Below are positions 12,254 to 44,306 of a DNA stretch of 64,000 bases, one piece after another. The DNA is taken from assembly GCA_965197905.1 (NCBI GenBank), contig CBDAOB010000005.1:800524-864523 (forward strand). The letters run 5' to 3'. Each line of letters begins with the position of its first letter. The first letter of the stretch is position 1. The translations under genes and the position numbers were made by a program. The notes under the pieces were generated by a model. It was not told where the DNA came from. It did not search any database and worked only from the letters and a program-made list of their open reading frames with translations. This DNA is from Candidatus Latescibacterota bacterium (GTDB lineage: Bacteria > Latescibacterota > UBA2968 > UBA8231).

Positions 12254-12399
12254 CGAATTGGTACAATCTGTCCGCTAGCGGTGTCACCTAAGTATAAGTA
12301 GGACGTATTGATGTTGACCTCAATACCCCAGACGATTGATATAGGGCACAGCGGCATTACCCTGAACGGTTTCAAAATCCCAGGAACCAAGGTGCCCTG

Positions 12400-14771: not shown

Positions 14772-14793
14772 TGGCGTCCGACGGGCGGTAGCA

Positions 14794-26346: not shown

Positions 26347-26375
26347 TTGCATGGCACACCCCTGATGAGTAGAAT
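26347..26375 (+). promoter_or_regulatory. Candidate sigma-70-type promoter for the 26396 operon
   Basis: TTGCAT (26347-52), a 17-nt spacer, then TAGAAT (26370-75), 20 nt upstream of ATG 26396 with GAGAGGAG in between. This is a pattern match only. Confidence 0.3.
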
Positions 26376-26395
26376 AGTTCGGTCGAGAGGAGCCC

Positions 26396-27238
26396 ATGAA
26401 CGTCGCCCAGATCGTCATGCACATGCAGATCGATGGGTTTTGCGTCATCCCGGGGGTCATCCCGAAGGATGAGGTGTCGCACGTGCTCGAAAGCATCGAG
26501 CGCACGACGAAGATGTTGGCCCCTGAGCGCTTCCCCGAAGATGGCGAGGAACCCAGTCAGTGGACCGATCCCGACTTTGTTAAGAGCGGAAAAGAAGCGC
26601 GGCCGCGAGGTTTACTCAACCACGACCAGTCGTTTGTCCCCTACCTTTGCGAACCGCGCCTGGCAGGCGCGCTCGAGGCGCTATTGGGTCCGCATTATCT
26701 GGCCCAGGACTGCGGTGTGGCGGTCAGTATCGGCCTCAGGCGGCGCGGGTTGCATTGTGACTGGCCTTACAATCAAAACGGGGATATCTCCGGCAAACTC
26801 CTCAAGCAACTCCCTGAGATACCTGTCCTCATCAACACCCTGTGGATGCTGACGCCCTTTTCCGAAGAAAATGGTGCTACGGCCGTGGTCCCCGGCAGCC
26901 ATCGATACGGAAAACCCTCCGGCGCCGCTGTTGACCGATTGGCGCGCTACCCGACGGAGTTGCAGGCAACAGGCGAGGCTGGCAGCGTGCTCATGCTCGA
27001 TGGCCGCACCTGGCACAGCATCATGCCTAACAGCTCCGGCAGGCGGCGTTCCTGCCTGATATTGCGCTGGATCCCGTGGTGGTTCAATATGGGGCTCTGC
27101 TGTGAGGGATCGCTCGAGCGACAGCATTGGATTGACCTCGGCTACACTATGCGGACGGAGCCACTCGTCAAGCCCGATGTCTACGACCGGCTACCATCCA
27201 ATGTAAAGCAGTTTTACCGTCACTGGGTCGAGTCATAG
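26396..27238 (+). CDS. PhyH-family Fe(II)/2OG dioxygenase
   Basis: 280 aa. Motifs DGFCVIPGVIPKDEV, LHCDWPY (H-x-D), ENGATAVVPGSH and WHSIMPNSSGRRR. Confidence 0.85.
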   Translation: MNVAQIVMHMQIDGFCVIPGVIPKDEVSHVLESIERTTKMLAPERFPEDGEEPSQWTDPDFVKSGKEARPRGLLNHDQSFVPYLCEPRLAGALEALLGPHYLAQDCGVAVSIGLRRRGLHCDWPYNQNGDISGKLLKQLPEIPVLINTLWMLTPFSEENGATAVVPGSHRYGKPSGAAVDRLARYPTELQATGEAGSVLMLDGRTWHSIMPNSSGRRRSCLILRWIPWWFNMGLCCEGSLERQHWIDLGYTMRTEPLVKPDVYDRLPSNVKQFYRHWVES

Positions 27239-29169: not shown

Positions 29170-31170
29170 CTAAAGGGTTTGGAACGGTACGGGAATCTTG
29201 TCCCCGTGCCAAGGGAAGGCGTAGCTGGGGGCGTTGACAAAGCGTTTCAGGCCGGCCTCCACACGTATGGACGTGGACGGCGGAAGCTCAATGGCGAAGT
29301 ACTTCTCATTCACCGGCGCAACGGTCTCGCCGTCGCGGCCTTCCTCGTGGTAGCGGACCTGCGTGAACCGATGCTCGCCAAAAGCCCCCGCCTGCACGAT
29401 GAGATTGCGCGTCTCGCTTCGATGGGTGTTGACGAGCTGAAAGCCCACGACCTCGGGCCCCAGCTCATCCACGAGAGCGGCCACGTCCCCAGGTAGTCCG
29501 GGACGAGCGCGATCCTGGTCGAAGTAGCGCACCGTGGCGCGCAGCAGTCCGCCGGTATAGATGGTCTGGGGTGCCCCCATCGTGACCTGGGTCAGCCCCT
29601 TGGTCACGACGGGCTGGTAGGGGAACTCGTTAGTCAGAATCATCTCGTGGGGGGTGCGCTCATCGAGCCGAATCCGCTCGTAGATCTCCAGGGCGTGCTG
29701 ATATTCGGCGGTCAGGATCTTCTCGGGCCAGTCGGGATTCTTGCCATCGTAATACTGGAACCGGGCGAACTCGGTCTGCCCTCCGTTCTTCTCGCCCAGA
29801 ACGGATCCGACCTCGTTCCAATCCCGCTCCACCTCGCCGTCGCGGACATGGGTGATCAACTCGTAATCCTCCCGGGACATGGAAGCGTGGTAGAGGTGCA
29901 TCATCTCCTGCCCGTTCATGGGGCCGGGAGGCGAGTAAGACCATTCTCCCATCGGAATGCCATCGTCTACGTAGGGTTCGATCGGCTCTCCCATCTCCCA
30001 GCCATCCAGGCCATACCGATAGGGCACAACGAACTGACCGTCTTCACGGCGGAACCCCTGATCGATTCGGACCTTGAGCTGCGAGCGCAGAAAATCCAGG
30101 TAGCTGCTGTCGCCGGTGAGCAGTTGGGCACACTCGACGCCGATGTTGATTCCGTTGTACATGATGCTGCAGCCTTTGAAGGAGGACCAGCCATACTGTC
30201 CTCCCCACCAGATACCCTCGCGTCCGCCGCCGATGACCCCGTTTGCATCGACGTTGTCCGGAACGATGCCGCCATTCAACTTAGTACGCTCCATCCAGGC
30301 CTCGGTGTAGTCCAAAACCCATTGTTTGTATTTCTCGTCCCCCGTGTAGAGATAGGCGTTGGTCACGAGGGCGGCCGCAGCCAGACTGCTGGGGGTGTCG
30401 CATTGCATGACCATCTTGTTGAACAGGTCAAGGATCTGCCGCCTGCGCTCGGGTTTCTCGAACCAGCGGGCCTCAAGGTGTTTGATGTGGGGGTAGAGAC
30501 TCGCCCGCACGCCGTAGTAGTTGCCCGGGTCTCCCAGTCGGCGGCCACCCAGGAGCATCACGTTGGCCAAGATCGCATCCCCCTCCAGCTTGGGTCCCTG
30601 ACTGGAATGGAAGGGGGAGCGCAGGATCCGATGTTCGGGGTCCCAGTTGGGCGCTTCGGGATCTTCGCCGATGAACATGGCGGCGAAGCGTTTGGCTCGG
30701 CGCACGTTCTCTGAGATGGTCGGATCGCCCAGACCCATGTGATAGAACGCCGTACCTCCTTCCCCGAGATGGTGCCATTCCGCCCCCGCATCCAAGTTCC
30801 AGAACTCGTTGTGGATGGAGGGCATGTAGACCCTGATGAAATCTTCGTGCAGGTTGGGACGATGTTGAATACTCTCATCGCTGATGCGGGTGGCGGCGTT
30901 CCACTGCTGAAGATGGAGGTCCAGCAGATCGTCGGCAGCGCCGATGGCGTAGAACAGACCGTAGTTGTAGAACTGCTCGTAGAGGTCGTCGAGATCCTCG
31001 GCGAGAAGGGTCCCGCCCCCGCGCTCGGTGTACTTCCTGGTGAACAGGCGGGCGGAGCGCTCCATCAGCTCGATCAGGTTCCGCTCGATGAGCGCCCACG
31101 CCGGCGCCGCCGAGACCTTCGTTGCTTTGATCTCAATCATTCCTGGAATTTCGACGGGTTTAGCGTACAT
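29170..31170 (-). CDS. Large conserved hypothetical protein (about 666 aa), no signal peptide
   Basis: Longest ORF in the region; the antisense ORFs are shorter. ATG 31170 is preceded by GGAGGA at 10 nt. I recognise no catalytic motif. The helical, Trp/Gly-rich core (IWWGGQYGWSSF) is compatible with an alpha/alpha-toroid carbohydrate enzyme, but that is a guess. Confidence 0.7.
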   Translation of the reverse strand: MYAKPVEIPGMIEIKATKVSAAPAWALIERNLIELMERSARLFTRKYTERGGGTLLAEDLDDLYEQFYNYGLFYAIGAADDLLDLHLQQWNAATRISDESIQHRPNLHEDFIRVYMPSIHNEFWNLDAGAEWHHLGEGGTAFYHMGLGDPTISENVRRAKRFAAMFIGEDPEAPNWDPEHRILRSPFHSSQGPKLEGDAILANVMLLGGRRLGDPGNYYGVRASLYPHIKHLEARWFEKPERRRQILDLFNKMVMQCDTPSSLAAAALVTNAYLYTGDEKYKQWVLDYTEAWMERTKLNGGIVPDNVDANGVIGGGREGIWWGGQYGWSSFKGCSIMYNGINIGVECAQLLTGDSSYLDFLRSQLKVRIDQGFRREDGQFVVPYRYGLDGWEMGEPIEPYVDDGIPMGEWSYSPPGPMNGQEMMHLYHASMSREDYELITHVRDGEVERDWNEVGSVLGEKNGGQTEFARFQYYDGKNPDWPEKILTAEYQHALEIYERIRLDERTPHEMILTNEFPYQPVVTKGLTQVTMGAPQTIYTGGLLRATVRYFDQDRARPGLPGDVAALVDELGPEVVGFQLVNTHRSETRNLIVQAGAFGEHRFTQVRYHEEGRDGETVAPVNEKYFAIELPPSTSIRVEAGLKRFVNAPSYAFPWHGDKIPVPFQTL

Positions 31171-31288
31171 GAGTTGGGTCTCCTCCGGAAACACACGGCG
31201 TCGTGAGCCCAGACAACATGAGTCCTGCACTGGGTCTTGGTGACGCCGTGAATCGCGAATAGCGGATAAGTCTCATTGTGGTCGTTTT

Positions 31289-32167
31289 TCAGTTCTCGGC
31301 GTAGGCCGCCTCCCGCAGTCCCTTCACGTAGCCCACCGCGAACACCCGTGCCGAGAGGTATTCGTCGTCGTAGGCGTCGTCACCCATTATCGGGTAGTGA
31401 TCCGGACGCAGCACACCCTCGTAGCCCACCTCGCGATACGCGCGCAGGCATTTCACAAGATCGGTCTGTCCATCGTCGTGGAAGGTCTCTTTGAAGTCGG
31501 CGGCTGTTCCGCGCACGTCGCGGAAGTGGACGAAATGGATCTTGCCCTGACCGCCGAAGTGGCGGATGGCAGCGGGTAGATCATCCGTCATCAAGGCGAA
31601 ATTCCCCTGACACAGGCCGACACCGTTCATCGGGCTGGGCACCATGTCGATGAGGCGCTGGTAGTTGTCGATGCTGCTCATGATGCGGGCCACGCCGCGG
31701 ATCGGGGACAGGGGCGGGTCGTCGGGGTGCATGGCCATCTTCACGTCAGCTTCCTCGGCCACAGGGACGACACGCTCGAGGAAATACTGGAGGTTGTTCC
31801 ACAGCTCCTCTTCGGAGACAACGCCGTGCTCGGTGGGGCCCACCTCCACCTGGGAAAGCTTGAAACCGCTAACGCGGGCGCCGGCGCGGGACGGCAGGTC
31901 GCGGTCAGTTCGCACAACGCCGAGGATGGTTGAGAACATGCTGCACCACACCGGAATGCCGAGCTCGCCCATATTGCGCAGCATCCGGCAGATCACCTCG
32001 ATCTCCTCGTCACGCCCTGGCAGGCTCCAGGGCTGTTCCTCTTCGGGCTTACCGGGGATCACCTGCAGGTTGCCGTGGCAGACGGCATGCTCCACGCCGC
32101 ACTGCCGCATCAACGTCCACTGCAGGCTCGGCTCGGGGGGCATGGAGATGGTTATCTTGATCATCAC
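31289..32167 (-). CDS. Mannonate dehydratase (UxuA)-family / xylose-isomerase-like TIM-barrel protein, short form
   Basis: 292 aa. MAMHPDDPPLSPIRGVARIMSSIDNYQRLIDMVPSPMNGVGLCQGNF matches the UxuA HPDDPP...NG..C.G core. The start overlaps the upstream stop in an ATGA. Confidence 0.65.
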   Translation of the reverse strand: MMIKITISMPPEPSLQWTLMRQCGVEHAVCHGNLQVIPGKPEEEQPWSLPGRDEEIEVICRMLRNMGELGIPVWCSMFSTILGVVRTDRDLPSRAGARVSGFKLSQVEVGPTEHGVVSEEELWNNLQYFLERVVPVAEEADVKMAMHPDDPPLSPIRGVARIMSSIDNYQRLIDMVPSPMNGVGLCQGNFALMTDDLPAAIRHFGGQGKIHFVHFRDVRGTAADFKETFHDDGQTDLVKCLRAYREVGYEGVLRPDHYPIMGDDAYDDEYLSARVFAVGYVKGLREAAYAEN

Positions 32168-33093
32168 CGGCTCCTTGATTCTACGTTAATTCGTTTCCTC
32201 CTCGTCCCGCGCACCGTGAAACGCCAGCGGGGTCCATATTTCTTCGCCAGGTTAGTGTTTTTCTTTATATCGCCCAAGATCTCCAGTACTTCCTTCACCG
32301 GAACCTCGTCACGGCCGGCTGTGCGTTTCAAGAATTCCCGGGTCTTGCCATTGAGAACCCCATAGAATCCTCGCACCTCCTCGTCCGGATGGTCACGCCA
32401 TAGTTGGGTCGGTATGAACGATTGGTGGCTGAGGAATTCGCGATGCCGGTGGCCGTAATAGATCTGCACCGATTTGCGTTCGGACTGTGTGGGACGCACG
32501 GTCACCGTGTGCAGGCGGGTAATATTAAACAGTATCGCCGTTCCCGCATGGCCGTAGAGGTCTTGGATTCCACCGCGCTCGAGCTGAGCCTCCGCATCCA
32601 GAAATTCTTGATCGAACGCCTGGGGCGAAACGGCGAAGCTATGGGTAGTGTCGTTCACGTCTTCCAGGTAAACCATCATCTGTATATAGCCGATGCGCAG
32701 CGGATGTTCCGGCCACATGGTGTCTGGCCCCCCATCTCGATGCCAGCGGCGCCCCACGGGCCCTTCCCACGACCTCATCCCCGGGAGCGGCTCACCGGCG
32801 TACGGCCCCATGTGCCTGAGGCAAATTTCCGAGAAACAGACCTCGTCGCCCATCAGACCCTGTAGCGCCGCCATCGCTTTGGGGTGGCGAATGATTTCAT
32901 CAAACTCGGGCGCGGTCAGGAGCGAATCGCAATGCTGGGATTGCCAGATGCCGTTGTTACCCCAGTAGCGGCTGTAGTCGCGCCGATTCCGGTCGAAAAG
33001 ATCCGCAAAATGGGTTACCTCGTCGTCACTCAAGATCTTTCCCAGCGACAGGTAGCCGTTCTCTTTGAAGAACTGGTAGTCCTTCTGTTTCAT
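32164..33093 (-). CDS. PhyH-family Fe(II)/2OG dioxygenase with conserved basic C-terminal tail
   Basis: ATG 33093 (MKQKDYQFFKENGYLSLGK) follows GGAGG at 7 nt. Motifs: RRWHRDG (H-x-D), distal LHTVTVRP, and the tail NLAKKYGPRWRFTVRGTRRKR. It is a paralogue of 43285-44214. Confidence 0.85.
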   Translation of the reverse strand: MKQKDYQFFKENGYLSLGKILSDDEVTHFADLFDRNRRDYSRYWGNNGIWQSQHCDSLLTAPEFDEIIRHPKAMAALQGLMGDEVCFSEICLRHMGPYAGEPLPGMRSWEGPVGRRWHRDGGPDTMWPEHPLRIGYIQMMVYLEDVNDTTHSFAVSPQAFDQEFLDAEAQLERGGIQDLYGHAGTAILFNITRLHTVTVRPTQSERKSVQIYYGHRHREFLSHQSFIPTQLWRDHPDEEVRGFYGVLNGKTREFLKRTAGRDEVPVKEVLEILGDIKKNTNLAKKYGPRWRFTVRGTRRKRINVESRSR

Positions 33094-33194
33094 GCGCTTT
33101 CCTCCTCTTTGACAAGCTGCCGTCGTAGTCACCGAAGTGACGGATGGCTAAAATCGGCCCCGGCACGCTACCTACGGGATCTGAACCCCGTGGA

Positions 33195-35159
33195 TCAATA
33201 TACCCGAATGTGGTTGTGTTTCACGCCTGTGATCGAATCGACCAACAACCAGAAGCCGGCTGCCACGAACTGGCCCAGAATAATCCCCATGAAAAACGGC
33301 TTCGTGCGTTCGTACAGCGCCGGCCCCCCGTAGTTTAATACCAGGACTTTGATCAGCCAGGCGACCAGTGTTGACATCCAGATGGCGTTCAAGATCCAGG
33401 AGGAGCTTATGGCGAAACCGACCGGATGGAAAGGCCACCAGGCGAAGGTGTGGCGGGCGATCATCAATACGCCCATAACTGCAGCGCCCACCCCGGTCCA
33501 TATCCAGCCGCCCATGTGCGCTTCAGTTGGACTGTTGAGCTTGAGCTCTACAAACCGAGCGGCGGTCTGCGCGTAGACGAAGTAGTAGCGGGTATTGAGG
33601 TTGAGTCCACCGTGCTTGTAGGCCAGGTGGATTTGAAACCAGGTGGCGGCCACCATGGCAATCACCGAAGCGGCGCCGATGGCGAAGACGAGCCTCCTTC
33701 GATTGCGAGTGATCTCTGATCCCATGCGCAGGGCGTTAGCCATCGGTGCGGTGATGAAGGTCATGAACCCACTGGCCCAGATCAGGGTAAGGCCTGTCGC
33801 CACGACCCCCGTCATGCCGAGGGCTGTAGTGCCGAGGGCGGAGGTGACGAAGTTGGCCGGGGCCATCGCGGGCGTAATGGTGGGCACCCCGGTCTCGGCG
33901 ATGACCCGCGCCAATCCGATCATTACGACCAGGGTGGCGAAGATGAATATAGGAGCGATCCAGGCCGGCATGCCGGAGTGCCACAACCAGAAAAAAACGA
34001 AGGTCGCACCACCCAGGAAGCAGAGCACTGCAGCACGGTACGGCATCACCTCCTGCGAATCGTCCACCGATGGGTCTCCGTTCCATGCCTTGCGCAACAC
34101 CTCCATGAGGTGGGACCGCGCCGTCCACAAGCCGAAAACCACCATCACGATCAGCGCCCCCATCATCTGGTGACCGAAGATCGGTCCTCCGATAGGCGTC
34201 GTGGCGTGCCCCGGACCCAGGTTCTGCGTGAGCCCGATGCCCAGCAGGACGAAGATCCCTCCCTGCAGCACACGCACGAGATAGAAGAACCACATGCTGA
34301 AGGCGACGCCTGTGTTGATGAAGTAGGCGAACCCCAACATGAGGAAATTGATGCGGAACATGATCTCGATCTGGTCGTGAAAGAACCTGTATTGTACCTG
34401 CCCCATGAAAGCGGGGATCCAGGCGAAGTAGTTGTGCAGAATGTTGGTGCTGTTCATCAGGAAGCAGAAGATGAAACCTGCCCACATGACCGGATTCTTG
34501 AAGAAGGGTTTGATGATCGCGTCGGGCCGGCCGTTGTCCTGCAGCATCGCCAGCGGCACCTGAGCCAGGGGGAAGGCCAGGCGCTCGCGCTCAACCCACT
34601 GGCGCCGCAGGATCACCAAGGCGCTGAGCAGCATGAGGTGGTAGGCGACAAAGAAGAGAAGCCAGCGCAGCAGGACCGGGAGCCATAGATGCCACGGAAT
34701 TCGGTCCGGGTCTCCTCCGTAGTAGAGCTCGCGGATCGCGTCCGCATCACTGAGCACCAACCATTCCGCCAGTACGGGATGAATCAGCTCGCCCCAGTTG
34801 TTTTCGGGCGAGGCGTAGAAGATGATCCCAGTGATCCCCACCACCAGCTTCTGCGATACGCCCCGGGTGGGAATGGCGGTGGCGATCGCCATCATGATGA
34901 AGATCACTGCCAGCTCACCGGGACGCAGGTGCCAGTTGCGCCTGAGCAGCGTCAGCATCACCTGTACGGTAAAAAGCACGACGAAAAACAGAATGAAAGC
35001 TGCCGGCGTACAGGAGCTGAGGCCGATGCGCGTCGCCCGCATCACGTTCAATGTATAAGGCAGGATTAACGCGATGCTGAGCGCCGAGAGCGAGCCGATA
35101 ACGAGGCAGCGAGCGCTGATCTCCCAGCGATCGGCAAGTTGAGACGGGTGGGTCATCAT
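33195..35159 (-). CDS. Polytopic membrane protein, paralogue B of the uncharacterised family
   Basis: 654 aa with about 14 or more hydrophobic spans. Family motifs: RIGLSSCTPAAFILFF, FYASPENNWGELIHP, ERERLAFPLAQVPLAML, WWPFHPVGFAI and YGGPALYERTKPFFMGI. Confidence 0.9.
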   Translation of the reverse strand: MMTHPSQLADRWEISARCLVIGSLSALSIALILPYTLNVMRATRIGLSSCTPAAFILFFVVLFTVQVMLTLLRRNWHLRPGELAVIFIMMAIATAIPTRGVSQKLVVGITGIIFYASPENNWGELIHPVLAEWLVLSDADAIRELYYGGDPDRIPWHLWLPVLLRWLLFFVAYHLMLLSALVILRRQWVERERLAFPLAQVPLAMLQDNGRPDAIIKPFFKNPVMWAGFIFCFLMNSTNILHNYFAWIPAFMGQVQYRFFHDQIEIMFRINFLMLGFAYFINTGVAFSMWFFYLVRVLQGGIFVLLGIGLTQNLGPGHATTPIGGPIFGHQMMGALIVMVVFGLWTARSHLMEVLRKAWNGDPSVDDSQEVMPYRAAVLCFLGGATFVFFWLWHSGMPAWIAPIFIFATLVVMIGLARVIAETGVPTITPAMAPANFVTSALGTTALGMTGVVATGLTLIWASGFMTFITAPMANALRMGSEITRNRRRLVFAIGAASVIAMVAATWFQIHLAYKHGGLNLNTRYYFVYAQTAARFVELKLNSPTEAHMGGWIWTGVGAAVMGVLMIARHTFAWWPFHPVGFAISSSWILNAIWMSTLVAWLIKVLVLNYGGPALYERTKPFFMGIILGQFVAAGFWLLVDSITGVKHNHIRVY

Positions 35160-35293
35160 TTCACCGAGAGGCGTGGTGGAGTTGGCGACAAAATCAGGCC
35201 GGTCTTCTGAAGGTCTGGCGACACCAGATCATGCCGTTCAAAACCTTCTTGCCTCCCGGCTGCCCTCCGGCGACTGACACGATCGATGGCTGA

Positions 35294-36772
35294 TCAGTGG
35301 GTGTTGACTCCGAAGGTGAGATTGTCCCAGCGATGCGTCAGCAGATGGCGGAGTAGAGCTTCCTGTGCCGTTTCTGTTCCGATATTGCGCAAGGCATGGA
35401 CGGCCTTGCCGCGAACGTAGCGGTTGCTGTCCTCGAGAGCTGCCTCCAGCTGAGGCGTGGCTTCCTCGGCACGTGAACCCAAGCGGGCTAGCGCCATGAC
35501 AGCCCTCATGCGAACCCTCTCTTCGGAGTGACCAAGCGTTCTAGCCAGCGCTCCCGGGACATCAGTTGCCGGCGGATCGATCCATCCTAGGGCTTCGGCG
35601 GCGTTTGCCGCCACTTCATCCGTCTGGTCTTCCAGACACCTGACCAGCTCCGGGAGGGCGGGCCGGGCTTGGTTCCCCATGTCGGCCAGCGCCTCGGCCG
35701 CACCGGCACGGACAGATGAGTCGCTATGACCCAGAGCTTCTGTGAGAGCGGGTACGGCTGATTTACCGATGGCGCTAAGCGCGTAGGTAAAACCCCTGCG
35801 AACACCCTCAGTGCTTGCCAGGGCATCGATGAGGGAAGGCACCGCCGACTCCCCGAGGGCAGCCAGCTCGTAGATGCTTTCGAGCCAGACCGGTTCGGAT
35901 GCGCCTACCTGTTCGTTGGTCTCCACTCGGGTCCACATCGCTCGATTAGGTTCACCAAGGGCCGAATTTTCCGAAGCGGTTTTGACGAGTTTGTCGATCG
36001 AAGCAGCAGCAGAATCCCCGTTCTCTGCGAATTTCTCACCGCTTTTGCCGCAATGCCAATCCCACACGCGCTTCTTCAAATTTGCATGGGGGACATCGGT
36101 GCCTGGCTGCCAGTCTTGATTCTTGCAGTCCCAGCTGGGACTCAGCGGCTCGCTCATGCGCGCGAAGATGAAAACCACCATAGCCCGTTTCTTCTCGGTC
36201 TTGTTGGAGGTGGCCGCGTGAAAGAGATCGTAGTTCGCCAGCACGATGGTTCCCGCATCCCCGCAGATCGGGAATTCCCGACCGAGGTCAACGCCATCCA
36301 AGGAATTGTAGTACTGACTACCCGGAAGGATGGTAGTCGCGCCCATCTCCGCGGTCGTATCCTGGGGGTAGTAGAGGCACCAGGCCCACCGGGTGCGATG
36401 TCTGCGACGGTGGCTCATGTCATCCTTGTGCAGCTTTCCGCCGAGGCGGCCGCGTTTGGGATCCGTGTTGACCCCGCCTCTGGGTATGAAACCGTGCTGG
36501 CGAAAGTGGCAATGCCGATGCGGATACATGAAGTAGTCGGCACCCAGGACACTCTCGAAGAAGCCGGAGATCTGCGGCTCATCGAACAGGTGCTGGAACA
36601 GTGGGATCCGCGGCAGGAGGTTGTTGCCGGGGTTACCCTCGCTTTCGTAGACACTCTCGATTTCGTCGAAGATCTGCTTGTGGAACGCAGCGGGCAGGCC
36701 GGACTTGAACATGAGGTATCCATCAATGATAAACCTCTGCATCTGTTCGTCGGTAAGGAGTTTGCGATCCAT
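35294..36772 (-). CDS. PhyH-like dioxygenase fused to C-terminal HEAT (PBS-lyase-type) repeats, copy 2
   Basis: Preferred start ATG 36772 (MDRKLLTDEQMQRFIIDGYLM), matching the paralogue's start. PhyH core motifs: LHKDD, MGATTILPGSQ and LFHAATSNKTEKKR. The C-terminal roughly 200 aa carry repeated ...AVPxLxxALxxxDxxVRxxAAxALxxxG... units. Confidence 0.85.
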   Translation of the reverse strand: MDRKLLTDEQMQRFIIDGYLMFKSGLPAAFHKQIFDEIESVYESEGNPGNNLLPRIPLFQHLFDEPQISGFFESVLGADYFMYPHRHCHFRQHGFIPRGGVNTDPKRGRLGGKLHKDDMSHRRRHRTRWAWCLYYPQDTTAEMGATTILPGSQYYNSLDGVDLGREFPICGDAGTIVLANYDLFHAATSNKTEKKRAMVVFIFARMSEPLSPSWDCKNQDWQPGTDVPHANLKKRVWDWHCGKSGEKFAENGDSAAASIDKLVKTASENSALGEPNRAMWTRVETNEQVGASEPVWLESIYELAALGESAVPSLIDALASTEGVRRGFTYALSAIGKSAVPALTEALGHSDSSVRAGAAEALADMGNQARPALPELVRCLEDQTDEVAANAAEALGWIDPPATDVPGALARTLGHSEERVRMRAVMALARLGSRAEEATPQLEAALEDSNRYVRGKAVHALRNIGTETAQEALLRHLLTHRWDNLTFGVNTH

Positions 36773-36810
36773 GTCAGCTGTTCCCAGGTCGGCGAACGAC
36801 GAAATACCGC

Positions 36811-38256
36811 TCAGTGGGTGTTGACTCCGAAGGTGAGATTGTCCCAACGATGGGTCAGAAGATGGCGGAGCAGCGCTTCCCGGGCTTCGGGCGTCCCAAT
36901 GTTGAACAACGCATGGACGGCTTTGCCGCGAACATACCTGTTGCTGTCCTCAAGGACAGATGCCAGCTGCGGTGTCGCTTCTTCTGCGCGTTTACCCATT
37001 CGGGCCAACGCCAGAGCGGCCCGCATTCGAACTTTGTCTGCGGCATGCTCGAGGGTCCTCCCCAGAGCCTGGGGTAGGTCCGGTTCCGGCACATCGATCA
37101 ACCCAAGGGCTTCGGCGGCATGTTCGACCACATCCTCTGACTCGTCTCCCAGACACCTGATCAACTCCGGAACCACCTGCTCGGCCTGTTTGCCCATGTC
37201 TCCCAACGACTCCGCCGCCACGGCGCGAACCGATGCGTTGTCATCCTCCAGAGCGTTCGCGAGTGCGGGTACGGCCGCTTCGCCGATGGCGGTCAGCGAG
37301 TGAGCGAAACCTCGGCGCACCCCCTCCGACGGATGTGCCAGGCCATCGATCAGAGTAGGCACTGCCGCCTCGCCGAGAGCGGCAAGTTCATAGATGGTTT
37401 CGAGCCAGATCGGTTCGGACCTGCCCTCCTGAGGCGTATTGTCCAGAGCCGCATTCTCGGTCGCCCTGGTCACCAGCTCGTCGATGGAAGCCACGGGTCG
37501 ATCGCCGCCTGAGGCGGATCCCCCATTGAGCTTGCCGCAGTGCCAGTCCCAGATCTGTTTCCGTAGAGATGGATGTTTGACCTCGGCGCCGGGCTGCCAG
37601 TCCTGACTCTCGCTGTCCCAGCTCGGGCCCGGCGGTTCGTTCATGCGCGCGAACATGAACTTGACAAGAGCCCGTTTCTTTTGGCTGCGGTTCGGCGTGG
37701 CTGCATGCCAGAGATCGTAGTGGGTGATGACGATGGTTCCAGCATCCACGCAGAGCGGAAACTCGCGACCGAGGTCAACGTCGGAGAGCGCATTGTAGTA
37801 CTGACTTCCCGGAAGGACAGTGGTGGGTCCCATATCGGGCGCCGTATCCTGAGGGTAGTATAGGCCCAGCGCCCACCGGGTGCGATGTCGGCGACGGCTC
37901 ATGCCATCCCGGTGCAGGCTTCCTCCGAAACCGCCCTTTCTGGGATCGGTGTTTACCCCATTTCTGGGAACGAACTCCGGCTCGCGAAAGTGGCAGTGGC
38001 GATGCGGATAGAGGAAGTAGCCTGCGCCCAGGATACTTTCCAAAGCGCCGGAGATGCGCGGGTCATCGAATACCTGTTGGAGCATCGGAATCCGCGGCAG
38101 CAGGTTGTTGCCGGGGTTCCCTTCCGTCTGGTACACGCTGTCGATTTCGTCGAAGACCTGCTTGTGAAACTCGGCGGGCAGGCCGGACTTGAGCATGAGG
38201 TATCCATCAATGATGAACCTCTGCATCTGTTCGTCGGTCAGAAGTCTGCGATCCAT
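36811..38256 (-). CDS. PhyH-like dioxygenase fused to C-terminal HEAT repeats, copy 1
   Basis: 481 aa. Motifs LHRDG, MGPTTVLPGSQ and LWHAATPNRSQKKR, followed by HEAT repeats. It ends with the same LLRHLLTHRWDNLTFGVNTH as copy 2. Confidence 0.85.
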   Translation of the reverse strand: MDRRLLTDEQMQRFIIDGYLMLKSGLPAEFHKQVFDEIDSVYQTEGNPGNNLLPRIPMLQQVFDDPRISGALESILGAGYFLYPHRHCHFREPEFVPRNGVNTDPRKGGFGGSLHRDGMSRRRHRTRWALGLYYPQDTAPDMGPTTVLPGSQYYNALSDVDLGREFPLCVDAGTIVITHYDLWHAATPNRSQKKRALVKFMFARMNEPPGPSWDSESQDWQPGAEVKHPSLRKQIWDWHCGKLNGGSASGGDRPVASIDELVTRATENAALDNTPQEGRSEPIWLETIYELAALGEAAVPTLIDGLAHPSEGVRRGFAHSLTAIGEAAVPALANALEDDNASVRAVAAESLGDMGKQAEQVVPELIRCLGDESEDVVEHAAEALGLIDVPEPDLPQALGRTLEHAADKVRMRAALALARMGKRAEEATPQLASVLEDSNRYVRGKAVHALFNIGTPEAREALLRHLLTHRWDNLTFGVNTH

Positions 38257-38358
38257 GTCAGCTATTCTCCAAAGCTAAGCACATCGGCGAACCTTGACAG
38301 TTGCCCAGAGCCTGATACATCGCCTGAGCTAAGGTGCTCTGGGGCCACAGCAGGACCG

Positions 38359-39441
38359 CTAGCCGAATTCCCTGGTAAGCTCGGGTTCGGCGCTGCTGGC
38401 GAGCTTGGAGTAGATCTGCAGCCGGCCGCGAGAGTCGGCGATGATGACCCGGTCCTGCTCGTCCACCTCTACTCCCGTTGGCCTGATGAACCTGCCCAAC
38501 GGTGTAAGGTCTTCGACCACGTCGAACGCCAACTTAGTCCGCGCGTCGCGGTTAATGACATACTCCCCGGCCTTGGAATCTGTGGGGTTCTTGGCGTCAC
38601 CGTGTATGGCCGTCAGGATCTCTCCACTGGACTCATAGATCTGCACCCGGTTGTTTGCCCAATCGGTGACGTAGACATCTCCGCCGCTGTCTACCGCCAC
38701 GTCCGCCGGATGATCCAGCGCTCCTCCCTCTTCGGGTGAGGTGCCGAAGCTCATCAGGTATGCGCCGTCGGCGGTGAATTTCTGCACTCGATTATTGCTC
38801 CAGTCGGCGATATAGACGTCGCCCGCGGCATCAACTGTGATCCCCCAGGGCCGTCTGAACTCACCCTCGCCTTGCCCCGTACTCCCCCAGGTCGCGAGAA
38901 ACTGACCCTCCTTGGTGAACCTTTGCACGCGGTCGTTGCGGCTATCAACGACCAGCAGGTTGTTGTCGGCGTCGAACGCGAGGCCCGAAGGACCGTTGAG
39001 TTGCCCGGGTCCCGCGCCGGTCTCTCCCCATCGCCCTTTCCGGTCACCGTTTTCTCCGTACTCCGGGAACGGAAGCGTCGAATTGGGATCGAAGATGGAG
39101 ATGGCGTTTTCGTACTCGTCTGAGCAGAACACATCTCCGTCGTCAGACACGGCAATGCCTGCCGGCCAGGTGAAATCGTTGCGGCCGAAGTCGCCCTCGT
39201 GGTGCTCCTCGATCGTGGTTTTTCCGATGCGCCGGTAGAGATCGGGCGCATCGGGGCTGAACGTCCCATAACCCAGGCCACGACTGAGGACGAAGATGAG
39301 ACCACCCGGCGCCAGGGCAAGAGACACCGGCCGCGAGAACCCGCCGGTGACGCCGTACTTGCTCTCGTTGTGCTCGGCCGTATTGCGTCCGAGGGCGTGG
39401 CTGAACCGCCAGGTGCGCCCAGCGGCGGTGGTGGTGATCAT
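38359..39441 (-). CDS. NHL-repeat six-bladed beta-propeller protein, no signal peptide
   Basis: Repeats include GPSGLAFDADNNLLVVDSRNDRVQRF, PWGITVDAAGDVYIADWSNNRVQKF and HPADVAVDSGGDVYVTDWANNRVQIY. ATG 39441 is preceded by GGAGG at 9 nt. Confidence 0.85.
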   Translation of the reverse strand: MITTTAAGRTWRFSHALGRNTAEHNESKYGVTGGFSRPVSLALAPGGLIFVLSRGLGYGTFSPDAPDLYRRIGKTTIEEHHEGDFGRNDFTWPAGIAVSDDGDVFCSDEYENAISIFDPNSTLPFPEYGENGDRKGRWGETGAGPGQLNGPSGLAFDADNNLLVVDSRNDRVQRFTKEGQFLATWGSTGQGEGEFRRPWGITVDAAGDVYIADWSNNRVQKFTADGAYLMSFGTSPEEGGALDHPADVAVDSGGDVYVTDWANNRVQIYESSGEILTAIHGDAKNPTDSKAGEYVINRDARTKLAFDVVEDLTPLGRFIRPTGVEVDEQDRVIIADSRGRLQIYSKLASSAEPELTREFG

Positions 39442-39497
39442 ATCAGCAACCTCCGCGTCCATCCGTTGCGGCCCGTGGTCACATGAACCTTGTAGTG

Positions 39498-40631
39498 TCA
39501 TCCAACGTCTATCAGGTGGGGCTTCTCGTGCTGGCCGCGAACGGCAGCTGCGGGATCCACCTTCAGCCAGTCTTCCAGCAGGTTGGTGTAGAGGCCACGG
39601 AAGTCGAATGTCGGCGCCAGATCGCCATCCTTGAGCCTCTCGCTCCTGATATCCGGATACTCGGCATAGGCGCCGCCTTTGACTTTCGGCCCCAGAACCC
39701 AGGACACTCCGGCCGCCCCGTGATCGGTGCCGCCGCCGTTTTCCTTCACCCGTCGACCAAATTCGGAGAACACCAGCATGACGACGTTTTCATCGGCCTC
39801 GTGGGCCTTGAGGTCGTCCCAGAACTCGGCGATGGCATTGGATATGTCGGTCAGCAGCTTCACATGTGAGGTGGCTTGGGCGGCGTGGGTGTCGAACCCG
39901 CCATATTCGGTGTAGAGTATCCGTGCTCCCAGGTCGGCAAGGTGAATCTTGGCTACATCTTTTAGCCGGTTGGAAACGGGGTTGGGGCCGTACTCTGTGT
40001 CCGAGCTGTAGTTTTGCGCCGCCGTTTTGACCATATCCGCGCCGTTCAGCGCGTCCATACCGGTGTGACCCAGGTAGTCCATCACCGGACCCGAGTCGCT
40101 GGAAGGGCTGTATATCCTGGCAAACCTTTCGAGCATATTCCGGCGTTCTTCCTTCGCGAAGGAGGTGAACAGGCCGTAGGCGTCGATGTCCGCCACGGAG
40201 GCGACGGAGACGCCGTCGGCCACCAGCGCGCGCGGCAAACCCGGACCTATGTTCACGGTGGTGACCGGATTGTCACCTTTGGGGTCGAGTTCCCTGGTAG
40301 CCTTACCCAGCCAGCCTTCGCTGGAGAAGGTGTCCGGTTCGGCGGTGTGCCAGATGTCCAGGCAGCGGAAGTGAGATCGGTTGGAGTTCTCCCAGCCTAC
40401 TCCATGGACGATCGCCATCTCTCCCTTGTCGTGCATCTCCTTGAGCGGGGCCATCGCGGGATGAAGGCCAATCTCGTCGTCCAGCTTGAGAACATCATCC
40501 TCGGGTACACCCAGCAGCGGGCGGTTGTCGTAGTATTGCGGGTTGGCGAAGGGGACGACGGAGTTCATGTAATCATTGCCGCCGCTCAATTGCAAAACCA
40601 CGAGCACCGGGTCTTTGTCTCTAGTTGTCAT
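39498..40631 (-). CDS. DUF1501-family (sulfatase/alkaline-phosphatase-fold) protein lacking the usual Tat signal
   Basis: 377 aa. Contains LVVLQLSGGNDYMNSVVP and YTEYGGFDTHA. The N-terminus MTTRDKDPVLVV runs directly into the core. Confidence 0.75.
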   Translation of the reverse strand: MTTRDKDPVLVVLQLSGGNDYMNSVVPFANPQYYDNRPLLGVPEDDVLKLDDEIGLHPAMAPLKEMHDKGEMAIVHGVGWENSNRSHFRCLDIWHTAEPDTFSSEGWLGKATRELDPKGDNPVTTVNIGPGLPRALVADGVSVASVADIDAYGLFTSFAKEERRNMLERFARIYSPSSDSGPVMDYLGHTGMDALNGADMVKTAAQNYSSDTEYGPNPVSNRLKDVAKIHLADLGARILYTEYGGFDTHAAQATSHVKLLTDISNAIAEFWDDLKAHEADENVVMLVFSEFGRRVKENGGGTDHGAAGVSWVLGPKVKGGAYAEYPDIRSERLKDGDLAPTFDFRGLYTNLLEDWLKVDPAAAVRGQHEKPHLIDVG

Positions 40632-40687
40632 AGGATGTTCTCCACACTCGGTCTGCCATTCTGTTTCCGCAGAACATATGATCCTCT

Positions 40688-42100
40688 CTATCCGAACTGA
40701 TACTCACGCGTGCCCGCGATCAAGGCCAGCAACTCGCCCACAATACGTGCGCATTCCGGCGTTGGTTCGACCGTCTCAAAGGACGGCCCCAGTGAACGGG
40801 CATGGTCTACTAGCTCTGAGCGCGTAGCCTCTTCAACTACCAACGGACCCATCTCATACAGACAGCGCTGAACCAGGACCTCGGCCGCGTCGCCGCCGCC
40901 GTTGACCTCCGCGGCCACTCTTTTAACGATGTTCTGGACGCCGGGCAGGTCGGTATCTCTGACGCGGTCGGCGACGAAGTTCACGCGGTTGATGAGGGCC
41001 CCACTATTAACCCACTCTCTGCCGGTATGCCAACCTTCGACGCTGGGAGGGTTGAGCAGGTCCTGTCCCATGCCCCGGGTCTGGGCGGGTATCTCTCCCC
41101 AGCTCGGATGCGGTCCTCTCAGGGCCCCGGTGAACCTCAGGGTCCCGGCGACAACCTCGACCGGGCTCCGGACCTTCTGGTAGGTCGCATCCTTGAAGAA
41201 GTCAGCGTTGAAAAGGACACGCAGCACAGGCTTCATTTCGAAGTCGTTATTGACCCACGTCTCTGAGAGCAGGTCGATGGCATCCGGGTCTCGAGGAGGC
41301 TGGTTGGGCCACTTTGGCACCTCGGGCTCATCAGCCACGAAGAAGTTATAGAGGTGTCTCATGACGAACGCCGGGCAGGCCGGTTGCTGCAGGATGATGT
41401 CGATGATGTCTTGACCGTTGAAGTGACCGGTGTGTCCCAGAAAACTCTTCTCGCCGTGGTCGTGGTCCTCCGGGCGGTACTCGAAGCCCCAGGGATGAGC
41501 ACCCCAGGGAAATCCGGGGATCTTGGGTTTGATGGTCCAACCCGTAAAGGCGCGGGCACACTCAAAGACATCTTTTTCGGTGTAGTTTCCCACCCCCAGG
41601 GAGAACAGCTCCATCAACTCCCGGCCCCAGTTTTCGTTGGGGGCACGCTTGTGGTTCTCCTGATTGTCGAGCCAGAAGATCATGGCGGGATTCTGGGCCA
41701 GCTCCAGCAGCAGGTCCCGGAAATTCTCTATTCCCCGGGCGCGGAACATCTGTATCTGGACGTCCATGTCGATAGCGGACGACACCTTGTCGTCACCGGT
41801 GGCGAAGACGTGGTGCCAGAAAAGCGCCATCTTCTCTTGAAGAGGTCGACCGGTGTTCACCATGCGGTAGAGCCACAACAGCTGTGCATGGTTAATTCCC
41901 TCGGACGGATGGGTGATAGGGTGATAGCGGTAGAACTCATACTCATCTATGTCCGGGTGCTGCTCGGGGTGCAGCAGTTGCTCTACGGTCTCTTCATACC
42001 CGTGCTCAGCCAGGACCTCCAGCTCTTCGTAAGCCGCGCCAAAGCCAGCTCGACGCATCAGGTGCGCCATCAGCGCGATCTCTTCTCGACCCGCCACCAA
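40688..42100 (-). CDS. DUF1800-family protein (usual partner of DUF1501)
   Basis: 470 aa with a TTG/GTG start after GGAG. Motifs: HLMRRAGFG, FWHHVFATG, NFRDLLLELAQNPAMIFWLDNQENHKRAPNENWGRELMELFSLGVGNYTEKDV and ARAFTGW. Confidence 0.75.
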   Translation of the reverse strand: MVAGREEIALMAHLMRRAGFGAAYEELEVLAEHGYEETVEQLLHPEQHPDIDEYEFYRYHPITHPSEGINHAQLLWLYRMVNTGRPLQEKMALFWHHVFATGDDKVSSAIDMDVQIQMFRARGIENFRDLLLELAQNPAMIFWLDNQENHKRAPNENWGRELMELFSLGVGNYTEKDVFECARAFTGWTIKPKIPGFPWGAHPWGFEYRPEDHDHGEKSFLGHTGHFNGQDIIDIILQQPACPAFVMRHLYNFFVADEPEVPKWPNQPPRDPDAIDLLSETWVNNDFEMKPVLRVLFNADFFKDATYQKVRSPVEVVAGTLRFTGALRGPHPSWGEIPAQTRGMGQDLLNPPSVEGWHTGREWVNSGALINRVNFVADRVRDTDLPGVQNIVKRVAAEVNGGGDAAEVLVQRCLYEMGPLVVEEATRSELVDHARSLGPSFETVEPTPECARIVGELLALIAGTREYQFG

Positions 42101-42390: not shown

Positions 42391-43260
42391 ATGTCAGATA
42401 TATCTTCTTCGTCCCAACGAGTTAGCAGCCCACGCATAGACGATCGCGATTGGAGCCGACTCACCCTAGGGCAGCAGATTCAACAGCTCGAGGTCGAAGG
42501 CTACGTCGTTCTGCCCGATCTACTCTCGGCCGATCACATTGCGCGCCTCAAGGAACAAACCGTGCAGTTCGAAACCACTCACGTGGATTACAGCGTGCAC
42601 CAGCGCGGTCGGCAAGATATCCAGTTTGCCGGCGGGGGGGTTACCGAGCTTGTTGCGTTTCCCCCCATGATCGAGTTCTTGAAAGCAGTCTGCGGCGATG
42701 AGATCGTTTTGATGTCCTACGATTACTCTCGCTCCGAGCCGGGGCACCCGGGCATCAGTCTGCACTGCGACGGCCAGCCGTGGGGGTCGCGAATTTTCGG
42801 TGCTGAATACACCTGCCCCAAACTGATCCGCGCCCTCTACTACCTGGACGATTTGATACCCGAGGTATCGCCCTTCCGCGTGGTGCCGCGGTCGCATCTG
42901 AGCTACCACAACGAAGCCAATCCGTACCTGCGCTACGAGGAGCACCCCGAGGAAGTCATGGTGACCTCCAGGGCCGGCTCTGCAGTGCTGTTCGACAATT
43001 ATGTATTCCACGGCAACTATCCCAACGTGGGCAGCTACCCGCGGGAGGCGCTTCAGCTCTCCTACCGGCCAACCTGGGCAGGTCCGGCAGGCGATGTCGA
43101 ACCGTGGGATCCGGACCATGTGGCCAACCTCGCTCCGACCGTGCGCCAGTTCATGGGCGATCGCAGTGCTCGCCTTTGGATCTACGAGGGCGGCAACAAA
43201 CCGGCTGATATGGCCAGCGAGGCTCCGGGCATGAACCCCAGTCGCTGGGATCGCGATTAG
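42391..43260 (+). CDS. PhyH-family Fe(II)/2OG dioxygenase
   Basis: 289 aa. Motifs EGYVVLPDLLSADHI, LHCDGQP (H-x-D), FRVVPRSH and VFHGNYPNVGSYPR. Confidence 0.85.
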   Translation: MSDISSSSQRVSSPRIDDRDWSRLTLGQQIQQLEVEGYVVLPDLLSADHIARLKEQTVQFETTHVDYSVHQRGRQDIQFAGGGVTELVAFPPMIEFLKAVCGDEIVLMSYDYSRSEPGHPGISLHCDGQPWGSRIFGAEYTCPKLIRALYYLDDLIPEVSPFRVVPRSHLSYHNEANPYLRYEEHPEEVMVTSRAGSAVLFDNYVFHGNYPNVGSYPREALQLSYRPTWAGPAGDVEPWDPDHVANLAPTVRQFMGDRSARLWIYEGGNKPADMASEAPGMNPSRWDRD

Positions 43261-43284: not shown

Positions 43285-44214
43285 TCAGGCGCGAAGCGGC
43301 TGTCGTAGTCTCCTCAGCCTCCGCGTCCCGCGCACCGTAAAGCGCCAGCGGGGTCCATATTTCTTCGCCAGGTTGACGTTCTCCCTTATGTCGGCCAGGG
43401 TCTCCAGCGTCTCAACCACCGGAACCTCGTCGCGGCCGGCGGTGCGCTTCAGGAACTCCCGGGTCTTGCCGTTGAGAACCCCGTAAAACCCGCGAACATC
43501 CGCATCTGTGTGGTCCCGCCAAAACATGGCCGGTATGAACGAATCGTCGCCGAGGAATTCGCGGTGGCGGTGGCCATAGTAGATCTGCACCGTCTTGCGC
43601 TCGGATTGCGTGGGACGCACGGTCGCCGTGTGCAAGCGGGTGATGTTGAAGATCACCGCCGTACCCGCTTTGCCATACAGATCGTGGACGCCTCCGCGCT
43701 CCAGCTGTGCCTCCGTGTCCAGCAATTCTTCATCGAACGCCTGCGGTGAGATGGAGAAGGTGTGGGTCGTCTCGTCCGCGTCTTCCAGAAAGAGCATCAT
43801 CTGCACATAGCCGATCCGCAGCGGATGTTCCGGCCACATGCTGTCCTCTCGCCCGTCCCGATGCCACCGCCGCCCCACCTGTCCTTCCCACGTCCTCATC
43901 CCAGGAATCGGCTCGCCCGCGTAGGGTCCCATGCGCCTGAGGCAGATCTCGGCGAAGCAGACATCGCCGCCCATCAGGGCACGAAGGGGTCCCATCGCCT
44001 TCGGATGCCGAATGATCTCGTCGAACTCGGGTGCCGTCAGGAGCGCATCACAATGCTGGGTCTGCCAGATGCCGTTGTCATTCCAGAAACGGCTGAATTC
44101 CCGACGATTGCGATCGAAAAGATCGACAAATCGGGCAAGCTCCTCGTCACTCAGAATCTTTCCCAGCGATACGTAACCGTGATCTCGGAAGAAATCGTGA
44201 TCTGCCTGCTTCAC
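43285..44214 (-). CDS. PhyH-family Fe(II)/2OG dioxygenase with basic C-terminal tail (paralogue of 32164-33093)
   Basis: GTG 44214 follows GGAGG at 7 nt. Contains MKQADHDFFRDHGYVSLGK, RRWHRDG and NLAKKYGPRWRFTVRGTRRLR. Confidence 0.85.
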   Translation of the reverse strand: MKQADHDFFRDHGYVSLGKILSDEELARFVDLFDRNRREFSRFWNDNGIWQTQHCDALLTAPEFDEIIRHPKAMGPLRALMGGDVCFAEICLRRMGPYAGEPIPGMRTWEGQVGRRWHRDGREDSMWPEHPLRIGYVQMMLFLEDADETTHTFSISPQAFDEELLDTEAQLERGGVHDLYGKAGTAVIFNITRLHTATVRPTQSERKTVQIYYGHRHREFLGDDSFIPAMFWRDHTDADVRGFYGVLNGKTREFLKRTAGRDEVPVVETLETLADIRENVNLAKKYGPRWRFTVRGTRRLRRLRQPLRA

Positions 44215-44306
44215 CGCCGGTACCTCCTGTTAAGCTGGTGGCATTCTTTAGCCACAGTTTGGAGACGCATGTAGGCCTTGCCAACGGGCGCTTGGACAAC
44301 GCAGAA

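Follow-up and report, generated by a model that had tools for sequence, protein, structure and literature searches.

What does a 2-oxoglutarate (2OG) oxygenase do with a helical-repeat solenoid fused to its C-terminus? This question is raised by two adjacent genes, here called A and B, located on contig CBDAOB010000005.1 (positions 800,524 to 864,523, assembly GCA_965197905.1) of a Candidatus Latescibacterota bacterium. The whole stretch of 64,000 nucleotides that was analysed is referred to as the window, and all coordinates are counted from its first letter. A first-pass annotation of the window had described the pair as tandem fusions of PhyH with HEAT repeats, about 481-492 residues long, and this is borne out by the open reading frames (ORFs) and by Pfam. 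On the evidence of the sequence, the catalytic core of both proteins is complete, with the metal and 2OG site intact. The PhyH-HEAT fusion is a large family found in at least five phyla, in sponge-associated and some soil bacteria; the architecture is common yet uncharacterised, and the pair represents new members of it, the design of an oxygenase plus a solenoid being already known. The explanation that we favour, with roughly an even chance of being correct, is that A and B are soluble cytoplasmic small-molecule 2OG hydroxylases or demethylases, in which the HEAT repeats form an integral accessory domain, and that they belong to a catabolic island with a DUF6785 protein as the likely importer.

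Organization of the gene pair

Gene A (36811..38256, minus strand) encodes a protein of 481 residues from an ATG start, and gene B (35294..36772, minus strand) encodes one of 492 residues; both match the Pfam families PhyH, HEAT_2 and HEAT_PBS. The maximal ORF of B is longer (35294..36847, minus strand, 517 residues, TTG start). We placed the true start at the ATG at position 36772, because the orthologues P0004 and L005B begin with MDRKLL and because A and B have an upstream leader in common. Both genes are preceded by AGCTGAC-ATGGATCGC with a Shine-Dalgarno-like GGAG/GGGA (38257-38275 for A, 36773-36790 for B), so that the 38-nt spacer between the two genes (36773..36810, minus strand) carries a Shine-Dalgarno-like GGGAA and a duplicated AGCTGAC. 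The two proteins are 67% identical over their full length, the linker of B being 11 residues longer than that of A, and both end with THRWDNLTFGVNTH; the identity of the C-terminal ends had been noticed in the first-pass annotation.

Catalytic domain

The PhyH family (PF05721) is matched with 40.5 bits (E 4.7e-10) by A and with 35.6 bits (E 1.6e-8) by B, the gathering cut-off being 22. In A, the family alignments, hhalign and the alignment with PHYHD1 assign the double-stranded beta-helix (DSBH) domain and its conserved C-terminal extension to residues 1-240 (37537..38256, minus strand). On the same strand lie the codons of the Fe ligands H115 (37912-37914), D117 (37906-37908) and H184 (37705-37707), and of the 2OG-binding arginine R195 (37672-37674). 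The corresponding residues of B are H115, D117, H185 and R196. Two family alignments were used, of 24 and 81 members, and the four residues of A are invariant in the 81 sequences. Four subfamily motifs, namely GNPGNN (residues 46-51 of A), PHRHCH (84-89, on the strand preceding HxD), YYPQD (133-137) and the WxW of the extension (236-238), are invariant or near-invariant in both alignments.

The register of the metal site required some care. When hhalign was run against a single canonical PhyH protein, the canonical HxD was placed on H85-x-H87. This was overruled by a profile of 22 canonical PhyH sequences, which gave a global match (probability 99.2%, E 1.8e-18) and brought the canonical WHQD, correctly spaced, onto H115-x-D117 and the canonical H..N..R onto H184, N189 and R195. 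The alignment with PHYHD1 agrees with the assignment of the distal histidine and of the arginine. The claim of a complete PhyH core, made in the first-pass annotation, is upheld by the invariant triad and arginine and by the profile alignment. Since the aspartate of HxD is kept, while halogenases have HxA/G, the enzymes are expected to be of the hydroxylase/demethylase type and not halogenases.

The best sequence match of the catalytic domain in the Protein Data Bank (PDB) is PHYHD1, which is marginal and partial (E 2e-3, residues 144-231), and no other sequence relative of the fusion protein was found there. The tie by sequence to the PHYHD1/FJS group of 2'-O-methyl nucleoside demethylases is limited to this partial match. 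A Foldseek search of the PDB with the N-terminal half gave SptF, TlxI/J, HygX, SnoK and FtmOx1 (probability 1.0, target-normalised TM-score 0.53-0.63), all of which are small-molecule PhyH-type oxygenases. With these enzymes, and with PHYH, PHYHD1 and EctD, the proteins A and B have in common the DSBH, the HxD...H triad, the 2OG arginine and an N-terminal start of the type 'LTxEQxxxFxxxGY'. They differ in their very divergent sequence, in the motifs listed above and in the obligatory C-terminal HEAT solenoid, which no characterised PhyH member has. PF05721 enzymes, one from Poribacteria included, demethylate 2'-O-methyl nucleosides (PMC12709175); for this reason, oxidative O-demethylation or hydroxylation of a sugar-like metabolite would be a reasonable reaction class for A and B.

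HEAT solenoid and overall fold

The C-terminal part of both proteins is matched by HEAT_2 (101.5 bits, E 3e-29 in A; 97.5 bits, E 6e-28 in B; cut-off 27.7) and by HEAT_PBS (51.5 bits, E 6e-14 in A; 56.9 bits, E 1e-15 in B; cut-off 20.9), and the matches of HEAT_2, HEAT_PBS and HEAT_EZ span residues ~290-480. Like those to PhyH, the HEAT_2 and HEAT_PBS matches are much too strong to be due to chance. In A, the linker (residues 241-280; 37417..37536, minus strand) consists of a G/S-rich low-confidence stretch (~241-255) and a conserved helix (256-267). It is followed by six HEAT repeats (residues 281-468) and by a conserved tail, RW[C/D]xxT (residues 469-481), which together occupy 36814..37416 on the minus strand. 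The AlphaFold2 (AF2) model of A, built with 81 sequences, has a predicted local distance difference test score (pLDDT) of 89.7 and a predicted TM-score (pTM) of 0.91 over the entire chain of 481 residues, and shows the DSBH domain, the linker and an all-helical C-terminal part, with helix pairs from 256/281 to 468. Lower confidence is seen in the linker (pLDDT 63-72, with DSSP used on the model), where the alignment is also variable in length, and in tail residues 474-481, which have a pLDDT below 50 and yet are conserved in the family.

In a Foldseek search of the PDB, the C-terminal half matched alphaRep/HEAT solenoids (31-36% identity, target-normalised TM-score ~0.7). The HEAT-like nature of this region had been offered in the first-pass annotation as a point on which the fusion could be refuted, and both the all-helical model and the structural matches support it. 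No single PDB chain covering both halves was found by Foldseek (query-normalised TM-score at most 0.36). In the AF2 model the HEAT domain is packed on the catalytic domain of the same chain, and a pTM of 0.91 for a two-domain chain indicates that the mutual orientation of the two domains is probably fixed.

The six repeats were put in register on the V of the repeat VR motif, and conservation was read at positions −2, −1, +2, +3, +6 and +10, which we take to be those randomised in alphaRep binders. At these positions, R315 (96%), N316 (85%), Y319 (92%), E349 (90%), D353 (95%), R419 (98%), R440 (88%), Y441 (100%), H448 (90%) and R452 (90%) are conserved. HEAT positions that are normally variable are therefore near-invariant in the sampled members, which come from four phyla, and in the outer helices only structural Pro/Leu residues are kept. 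Most of the conserved concave residues are found also in the Metabacillus protein, whose overall identity is ~41%. A surface that is constant across paralogues and phyla, in a rigid model, is most simply explained by a constant partner, and we infer that this would be either the catalytic domain of the same protein or a moiety common to the substrates. The conserved tail of low confidence may be a lid or a partner motif.

According to the explanation that we favour, the six-repeat solenoid would be an obligatory, rigidly packed accessory domain of the oxygenase. Its concave face and the conserved tail would help to build, cap or gate the substrate site, and would probably not recruit varied macromolecules.

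The charge of the HEAT domain bears on a different possibility, namely that the enzymes modify nucleic acids or other polyanions, for example as RNA 2'-O-methyl demethylases, with the repeats serving as an RNA/DNA-binding solenoid similar to the HEAT-like repeats of the AlkD type. The activity of PF05721 enzymes on 2'-O-methyl nucleosides (PMC12709175) and the match of the catalytic domain to PHYHD1 speak for it. The HEAT domain is, however, strongly acidic (mean net charge −9.8, and −14 for that of A). At the concave positions the net charge is ~−1, which is unfavourable for polyanions; the acidity argues against a nucleic-acid or a sulfated-glycan ligand. Furthermore, nucleic-acid-related genes do not recur among the neighbours of 90 fusion genes, and we regard a function of this kind as highly improbable.

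In the Latescibacterota subclade to which A and B belong, a 14-residue insert, EFVPRNGVNTDPRKG, lies between the PHRHCH strand and HxD (residues 94-108 of A, ~37933-37977). In the same subclade the tail cysteine is replaced by aspartate (RWC to RWD; residue 472 of A, 36841-36843). The two changes occur together, and there may be an interplay between the tail and the region of the active site.

Comparison with other solenoid proteins

Covalent union of a 2OG oxygenase with a helical-repeat solenoid of about six repeats is shared by A and B with AspH, collagen prolyl 4-hydroxylase (P4H), leprecans and PLODs. In AspH, the EGF-domain substrate is bound on the concave face of the tetratricopeptide repeat (TPR) domain and is not hydroxylated by the oxygenase domain in isolation (PMC6817910). 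The TPR domain of the AspH-type enzymes is N-terminal to the oxygenase, whereas the HEAT domain of A and B is C-terminal; AspH has a two-ligand Fe site, whereas the PhyH-HEAT family has the full triad; and the AspH-type enzymes are eukaryotic, act in the lumen of the endoplasmic reticulum and have protein substrates, whereas the family of A and B is bacterial and cytoplasmic and is encoded in catabolic gene clusters. Identity with the AspH type was rejected, as neither A nor B has a TPR, Asp_Arg_Hydrox or P4H Pfam match; the likeness is one of design alone.

The analogy nevertheless raises the possibility that the concave face of the HEAT domain presents a protein side chain to the PhyH site, which would make A and B bacterial, cytoplasmic analogues of AspH and collagen P4H acting on proteins or peptides. 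HEAT/ARM solenoids are classic protein binders, AspH needs its repeats for its substrate, the conserved binder-type positions form a mixed set of Arg, Glu, Tyr and His that would suit a specific peptide, and the conserved disordered tail might serve in docking or as an autosubstrate. On the other hand, the enzymes that Foldseek places nearest to the catalytic domain in structure all act on small molecules, and the two to three paralogues per genome all have the same constant HEAT surface. The neighbouring genes encode small-molecule enzymes, transporters and AraC regulators, and when the neighbours at 80 loci were clustered without bias, no conserved candidate protein partner emerged. To our knowledge, no enzyme of the PhyH clade hydroxylates a free protein. 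Taken together, we consider hydroxylation of a protein or peptide unlikely.

The 31-33-residue repeat 'AVPxLxxAL..D....VR..AA.ALG.IG' of A and B is shared with CpcE/F and NblB, which are HEAT proteins of the PBS-lyase type, and with the alphaRep scaffolds that were derived from such proteins. The family differs from these proteins in that the alphaRep-type binder positions are conserved and not variable, and in that the repeats are fused to an oxygenase. We tried two further identities and rejected both. Phycobilin lyases (CpcE/CpcF/CpeY) and NblB were matched in NCBIfam with 23-33 bits, to be compared with cut-offs of 220-600. In a PADLOC search for known anti-phage defence systems, only short HEAT stretches of giant models were matched (16-41 bits).

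Distribution of the fusion

A protein search with A gave 956 matches, and the best 120 were all full-length proteins (~442-510 residues) with PF05721 and HEAT Pfams; their names in the source were just 'HEAT repeat domain-containing protein' or 'phytanoyl-CoA dioxygenase'. In a collection with one genome per species, we confirmed at least 543 fusion stretches. The best 80 of these belong to metagenome-assembled genomes (MAGs) of Poribacteria, Chloroflexota/Dehalococcoidia, Latescibacterota and Gemmatimonadota, and sponges and corals are the source of many of these genomes. Two or three copies per genome are often present, and the fusion is found also in Paenibacillus species and in Metabacillus (Firmicutes). 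When the full-length alignment was run as a profile against 1.84 billion representatives, 186,364 matches were obtained; this total was swamped by giant multi-HEAT proteins and is uninformative on architecture, whereas ~50 full-length representatives (446-553 residues) among the top 150 could be used. The members in the databases (Poribacteria, Paenibacillus, Metabacillus) have the same architecture, motifs and tail as A and B, with 41-48% identity. The subclade of A and B differs from them by the 14-residue insert, the RWD tail, the tandem duplication and the DUF6785 neighbour.

When the catalytic domain was used as the only query, this catalytic subfamily proved to be nearly always fused to HEAT repeats. 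Most 'PhyH-only' matches are fragments that end within the first HEAT repeat, or halves produced by a frameshift, and a Planctomycetes MAG (P0313) contains what is apparently a true stand-alone catalytic protein. In Metabacillus halosaccharovorans, the two halves are present as overlapping ORFs (8001-8687 and 8639-9406 of locus L084), the conserved tail SRWCPTTTKVNTF being included; in Paenibacillus sp. CC-CFT747 (locus L085), the halves are at 7666-8031 and 8001-9077. Each of these Firmicutes halves has an annotation of its own, either 'phytanoyl-CoA dioxygenase family protein' or 'HEAT repeat domain-containing protein'. A programmed frameshift was considered and rejected, as the positions of the break differ between genomes; the frameshifts probably reflect errors or pseudogenes.

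The first-pass annotation knew of no characterised enzyme with this architecture, and our searches agree: the PDB has no solved structure of it, the fusion has no curated family and no NCBIfam model, and we found no paper on the PhyH-HEAT architecture and no characterised enzyme in the literature. The rarity that this seemed to imply did not hold, given at least 543 loci in at least five phyla. As for the proviso that the architecture might prove to be common with a known, unrelated function, common it is, and its function is uncharacterised.

The fusion is a sharply defined and widespread subfamily of the PhyH expansion of sponge symbionts. This expansion, in which PhyH accounts for more than 1.9% of genes, was described in Poribacteria, has been unexplained since 2014 and extends to other sponge-associated phyla, where PhyH is abundant; hardly any of these genes has been assigned a function (PMC3909097). 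The substrate of the PhyH-HEAT proteins would reveal what sponge symbionts oxidise, and would show whether the role of the solenoid in a 2OG oxygenase is that of a substrate clamp or of a protein-recognition module. Because the family occurs also in culturable Paenibacillus and Metabacillus, it offers a tractable entry point. In surveys, its genes have probably been tallied under 'eukaryote-like HEAT repeat proteins' as well as under PhyH, which may inflate inferences of host interaction, since the proteins are without a signal peptide and look cytoplasmic.

Gene neighbourhood across loci

We Pfam-assigned 111 same-strand ORFs situated no more than 250 nt away from one of 90 fusion genes. The commonest families are GFO/IDH/MocA (13), aldo-keto reductase (10), PhyH (7), metallo-beta-lactamase (5), MR_MLE (4), cyclase (4) and DUF6785 (3). 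The link with GFO/IDH/MocA recurs in Latescibacterota and Chloroflexota, and that with aldo-keto reductase in Poribacteria. At other loci, MR_MLE and FAH genes are beside the fusion, a TRAP transporter is near it in L004, and the Firmicutes fusion has as neighbours AraC regulators, a xylose-isomerase-like TIM barrel and a zinc-dependent alcohol dehydrogenase.

On the basis of this neighbourhood, the substrate would be an imported small organic molecule of the carbohydrate, cyclitol or methylated-sugar type. It would be converted in concert with the NAD(P) oxidoreductases, the TIM-barrel and enolase-type enzymes and the further PhyH enzymes encoded nearby, and in the Latescibacterota clade the downstream DUF6785 protein would be its likely importer and not a docking partner.

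The AraC regulators that flank the Firmicutes gene, and the predicted flexibility of the conserved tail, would also suit a sensor or regulator, that is, an oxygenase sensing O2, 2OG or Fe with the HEAT domain and the tail as an output or autoinhibitory module. The presence of several paralogues per genome, the embedding of the genes in catabolic clusters and the lack of any DNA-binding or signalling domain in Pfam all run counter to such a role, to which we assign a very small probability.

The relationship with DUF6785 deserves a closer look, as docking of the fusions to the adjacent membrane protein had been suggested in the first-pass annotation. Here the HEAT domain would tether the oxygenase to the cytoplasmic face of the DUF6785/DUF6784 protein, forming a transport metabolon in which the imported substrate is oxidised on the spot. 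In the window and in L005, L006 and L007, a B-type fusion is directly upstream of DUF6785 despite a number of synonymous substitutions per synonymous site (dS) of ~1, the Latescibacterota loci L006 and L007 having this single B-type fusion immediately upstream of the membrane gene. In addition, DUF6785 paralogues in the window are paired with PhyH-like genes. However, the adjacency is confined to the Latescibacterota subclade (L001-L007). Of 83 loci, 10 have DUF6785 within 10 kb of the fusion; outside the clade this occurs at four more loci only, at a distance of ~4-9 kb, and DUF6785 is a close same-strand neighbour of just 3 of the 90 fusion genes. In 73 of the 83 loci examined, DUF6785 is not found within 10 kb of the fusion, and yet the HEAT surface is the same in the sampled members of all phyla and for the most part preserved in the Bacillales member; AF2 packs the HEAT domain against the catalytic domain of its own chain (pTM 0.91). 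Docking thus lacks support as a general explanation, the co-occurrence of the fusion and the membrane family that had been proposed as a check is not observed across genomes, and we judge the metabolon hardly probable.

Several points weigh against a small-molecule enzyme with an integral HEAT domain, which we still prefer. The characterised helical repeats fused to oxygenases, those of AspH and collagen P4H, bind protein substrates (PMC6817910), and the conserved tail of low confidence could equally be a partner-binding motif. The adjacency of B and DUF6785 is kept in four species-level genomes with a dS of ~1, so that a physical link between the two proteins is possible in this clade. Moreover, the gene neighbourhood from which the substrate class of A and B is proposed is variable, with no neighbour family present in more than 14 of the 80 loci.

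A broader proposal would unite the two macromolecular possibilities, with the PhyH-HEAT family consisting of bacterial solenoid-guided macromolecule hydroxylases whose constant HEAT face and RWCxxT tail recognise either a conserved protein or peptide of the cytoplasm or, in the Latescibacterota clade of A and B, a DUF6785 loop. This seems to us distinctly unlikely. If it were true, these would be the first protein hydroxylases of the PhyH clade and prokaryotic equivalents of AspH and collagen P4H, and some of the PhyH expansion of sponge symbionts would thereby be explained.

Between the members of near-tandem PhyH-HEAT pairs in Poribacteria lies a gene of ~242 codons on the opposite strand (L029, 11565-12293, minus strand; L031, L034, L037, L049, L056 and others). 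The encoded protein has a signal-peptide-like N-terminus, an Arg/Gly-rich tail and no Pfam match, and its gene adjoins the fusion in 14 loci.

Evolution of the pair

The closest relative of the window is Candidatus Latescibacterota OZ244235.1, in which A is 81% and B 90% identical and the gene order is the same. When compared with the L005 orthologues, A has a ratio of nonsynonymous to synonymous substitution rates (dN/dS) of 0.23 with a dN of 0.102, and B a dN/dS of 0.135 with a dN of 0.049; between A and B themselves, dN/dS is 0.23, dN 0.197 and dS 0.87. Both genes are under purifying selection, and A is evolving about twice as fast as B. In a neighbour-joining tree, L006/L007 group with the B clade, and the A clade is the sister of that group, a topology which implies that the duplication predates the split from the single-copy relatives. 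A would then derive from a B-like gene through an old tandem duplication and would have been diverging faster since.

Not a single nucleotide differs between A and B in their final 12 codons (36814-36849 and 35297-35332), and third-position identity is 0.83 over the first 30 codons, as compared to ~0.55 elsewhere, which suggests local gene conversion at the ends of the two genes.

Two closely related strains carry split ORFs. In L001, the B copy is split into ORFs of 231 and 214 residues (11485-12180 and 12318-12962), and in L002 the DUF6785 gene is split into ORFs of 330 and 323 residues (13097-14089 and 14086-15057). These are either strain-specific pseudogenes or indel errors of long reads.

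Other genes of the window

A and B belong to a run of ten co-directional genes on the minus strand, from 42100 to 29170, which includes DUF1800, DUF1501, NHL, A, B, DUF6785, PhyH-like, UxuA-like and DUF8034 genes. The pair thus lies in the middle of the run and is not clearly at the head of an operon, where the first-pass annotation had placed it; its position upstream of the membrane gene, on the same strand and with a gap of 134 nt, is correct, B being the copy that adjoins the DUF6785 gene. The gene directly upstream of A (38359..39501, minus strand) encodes an NHL-repeat beta-propeller protein (Pfam NHL, E 1e-37) that has the same place in L001-L003, and is separated from A by 102 nt. The DUF1800-DUF1501-NHL trio (38359-42100, minus strand) is kept in the closest relative; in the strain of L002, a transposase of the IS1595 family and small genes are inserted upstream of it. 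In the intergenic gaps of the region 33000-39700, that between B and DUF6785 (35160..35293, minus strand) included, a scan gave no consensus promoter or terminator, terminator-like sites being fewer than in shuffled sequence, and such a scan is uninformative for the operon structure of this organism.

The DUF6785 + DUF6784 gene (33195..35159, minus strand; Pfam E 1.5e-117 and 5e-32) encodes a polytopic membrane protein of 654 residues with ~12 transmembrane segments by hydropathy, which is a candidate transporter. A DUF6785 profile had no match among PDB sequences, and we found no paper mentioning DUF6785, DUF6784 or PF20581. An AF2 model built with the three paralogues of the window as only input was unusable (pLDDT 36, pTM 0.24). 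Further downstream on the minus strand are genes for a PhyH-like protein of 322 residues (32164..33132; Pfam PhyH, 23 bits), for a UxuA-like/xylose-isomerase-like TIM-barrel protein (31289..32167; Pfam UxuA, E 1.3e-67) and for a protein of 686 residues (29170..31230), which has no local Pfam match of its own and whose orthologue in L001-L003 has DUF8034.

The window as a whole is a PhyH-rich island, with at least seven PF05721 genes, three DUF6785 paralogues, TIM-barrel/UxuA genes and BNR-repeat proteins. Other PhyH genes are at 26396-27238 (plus strand), 42391-43260 (plus), 43285-44214 (minus) and 56748-57812 (plus), and the DUF6785 paralogues are at 33195-35159, 44307-46277 and 49007-50758 (all minus). 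Two of the three paralogues are followed on the same strand by a PhyH-like gene encoding 309-322 residues, the second such module being at 43285-46277; 'DUF6785 + PhyH-like' is therefore a duplicated module. Elsewhere in the window, an ORF of 1120 residues without any Pfam match (23143-26505, minus strand) adjoins the gene for a protein of 652 residues (21067-23025, plus strand) that carries a FlgD_ig / type IX secretion C-terminal sorting domain.

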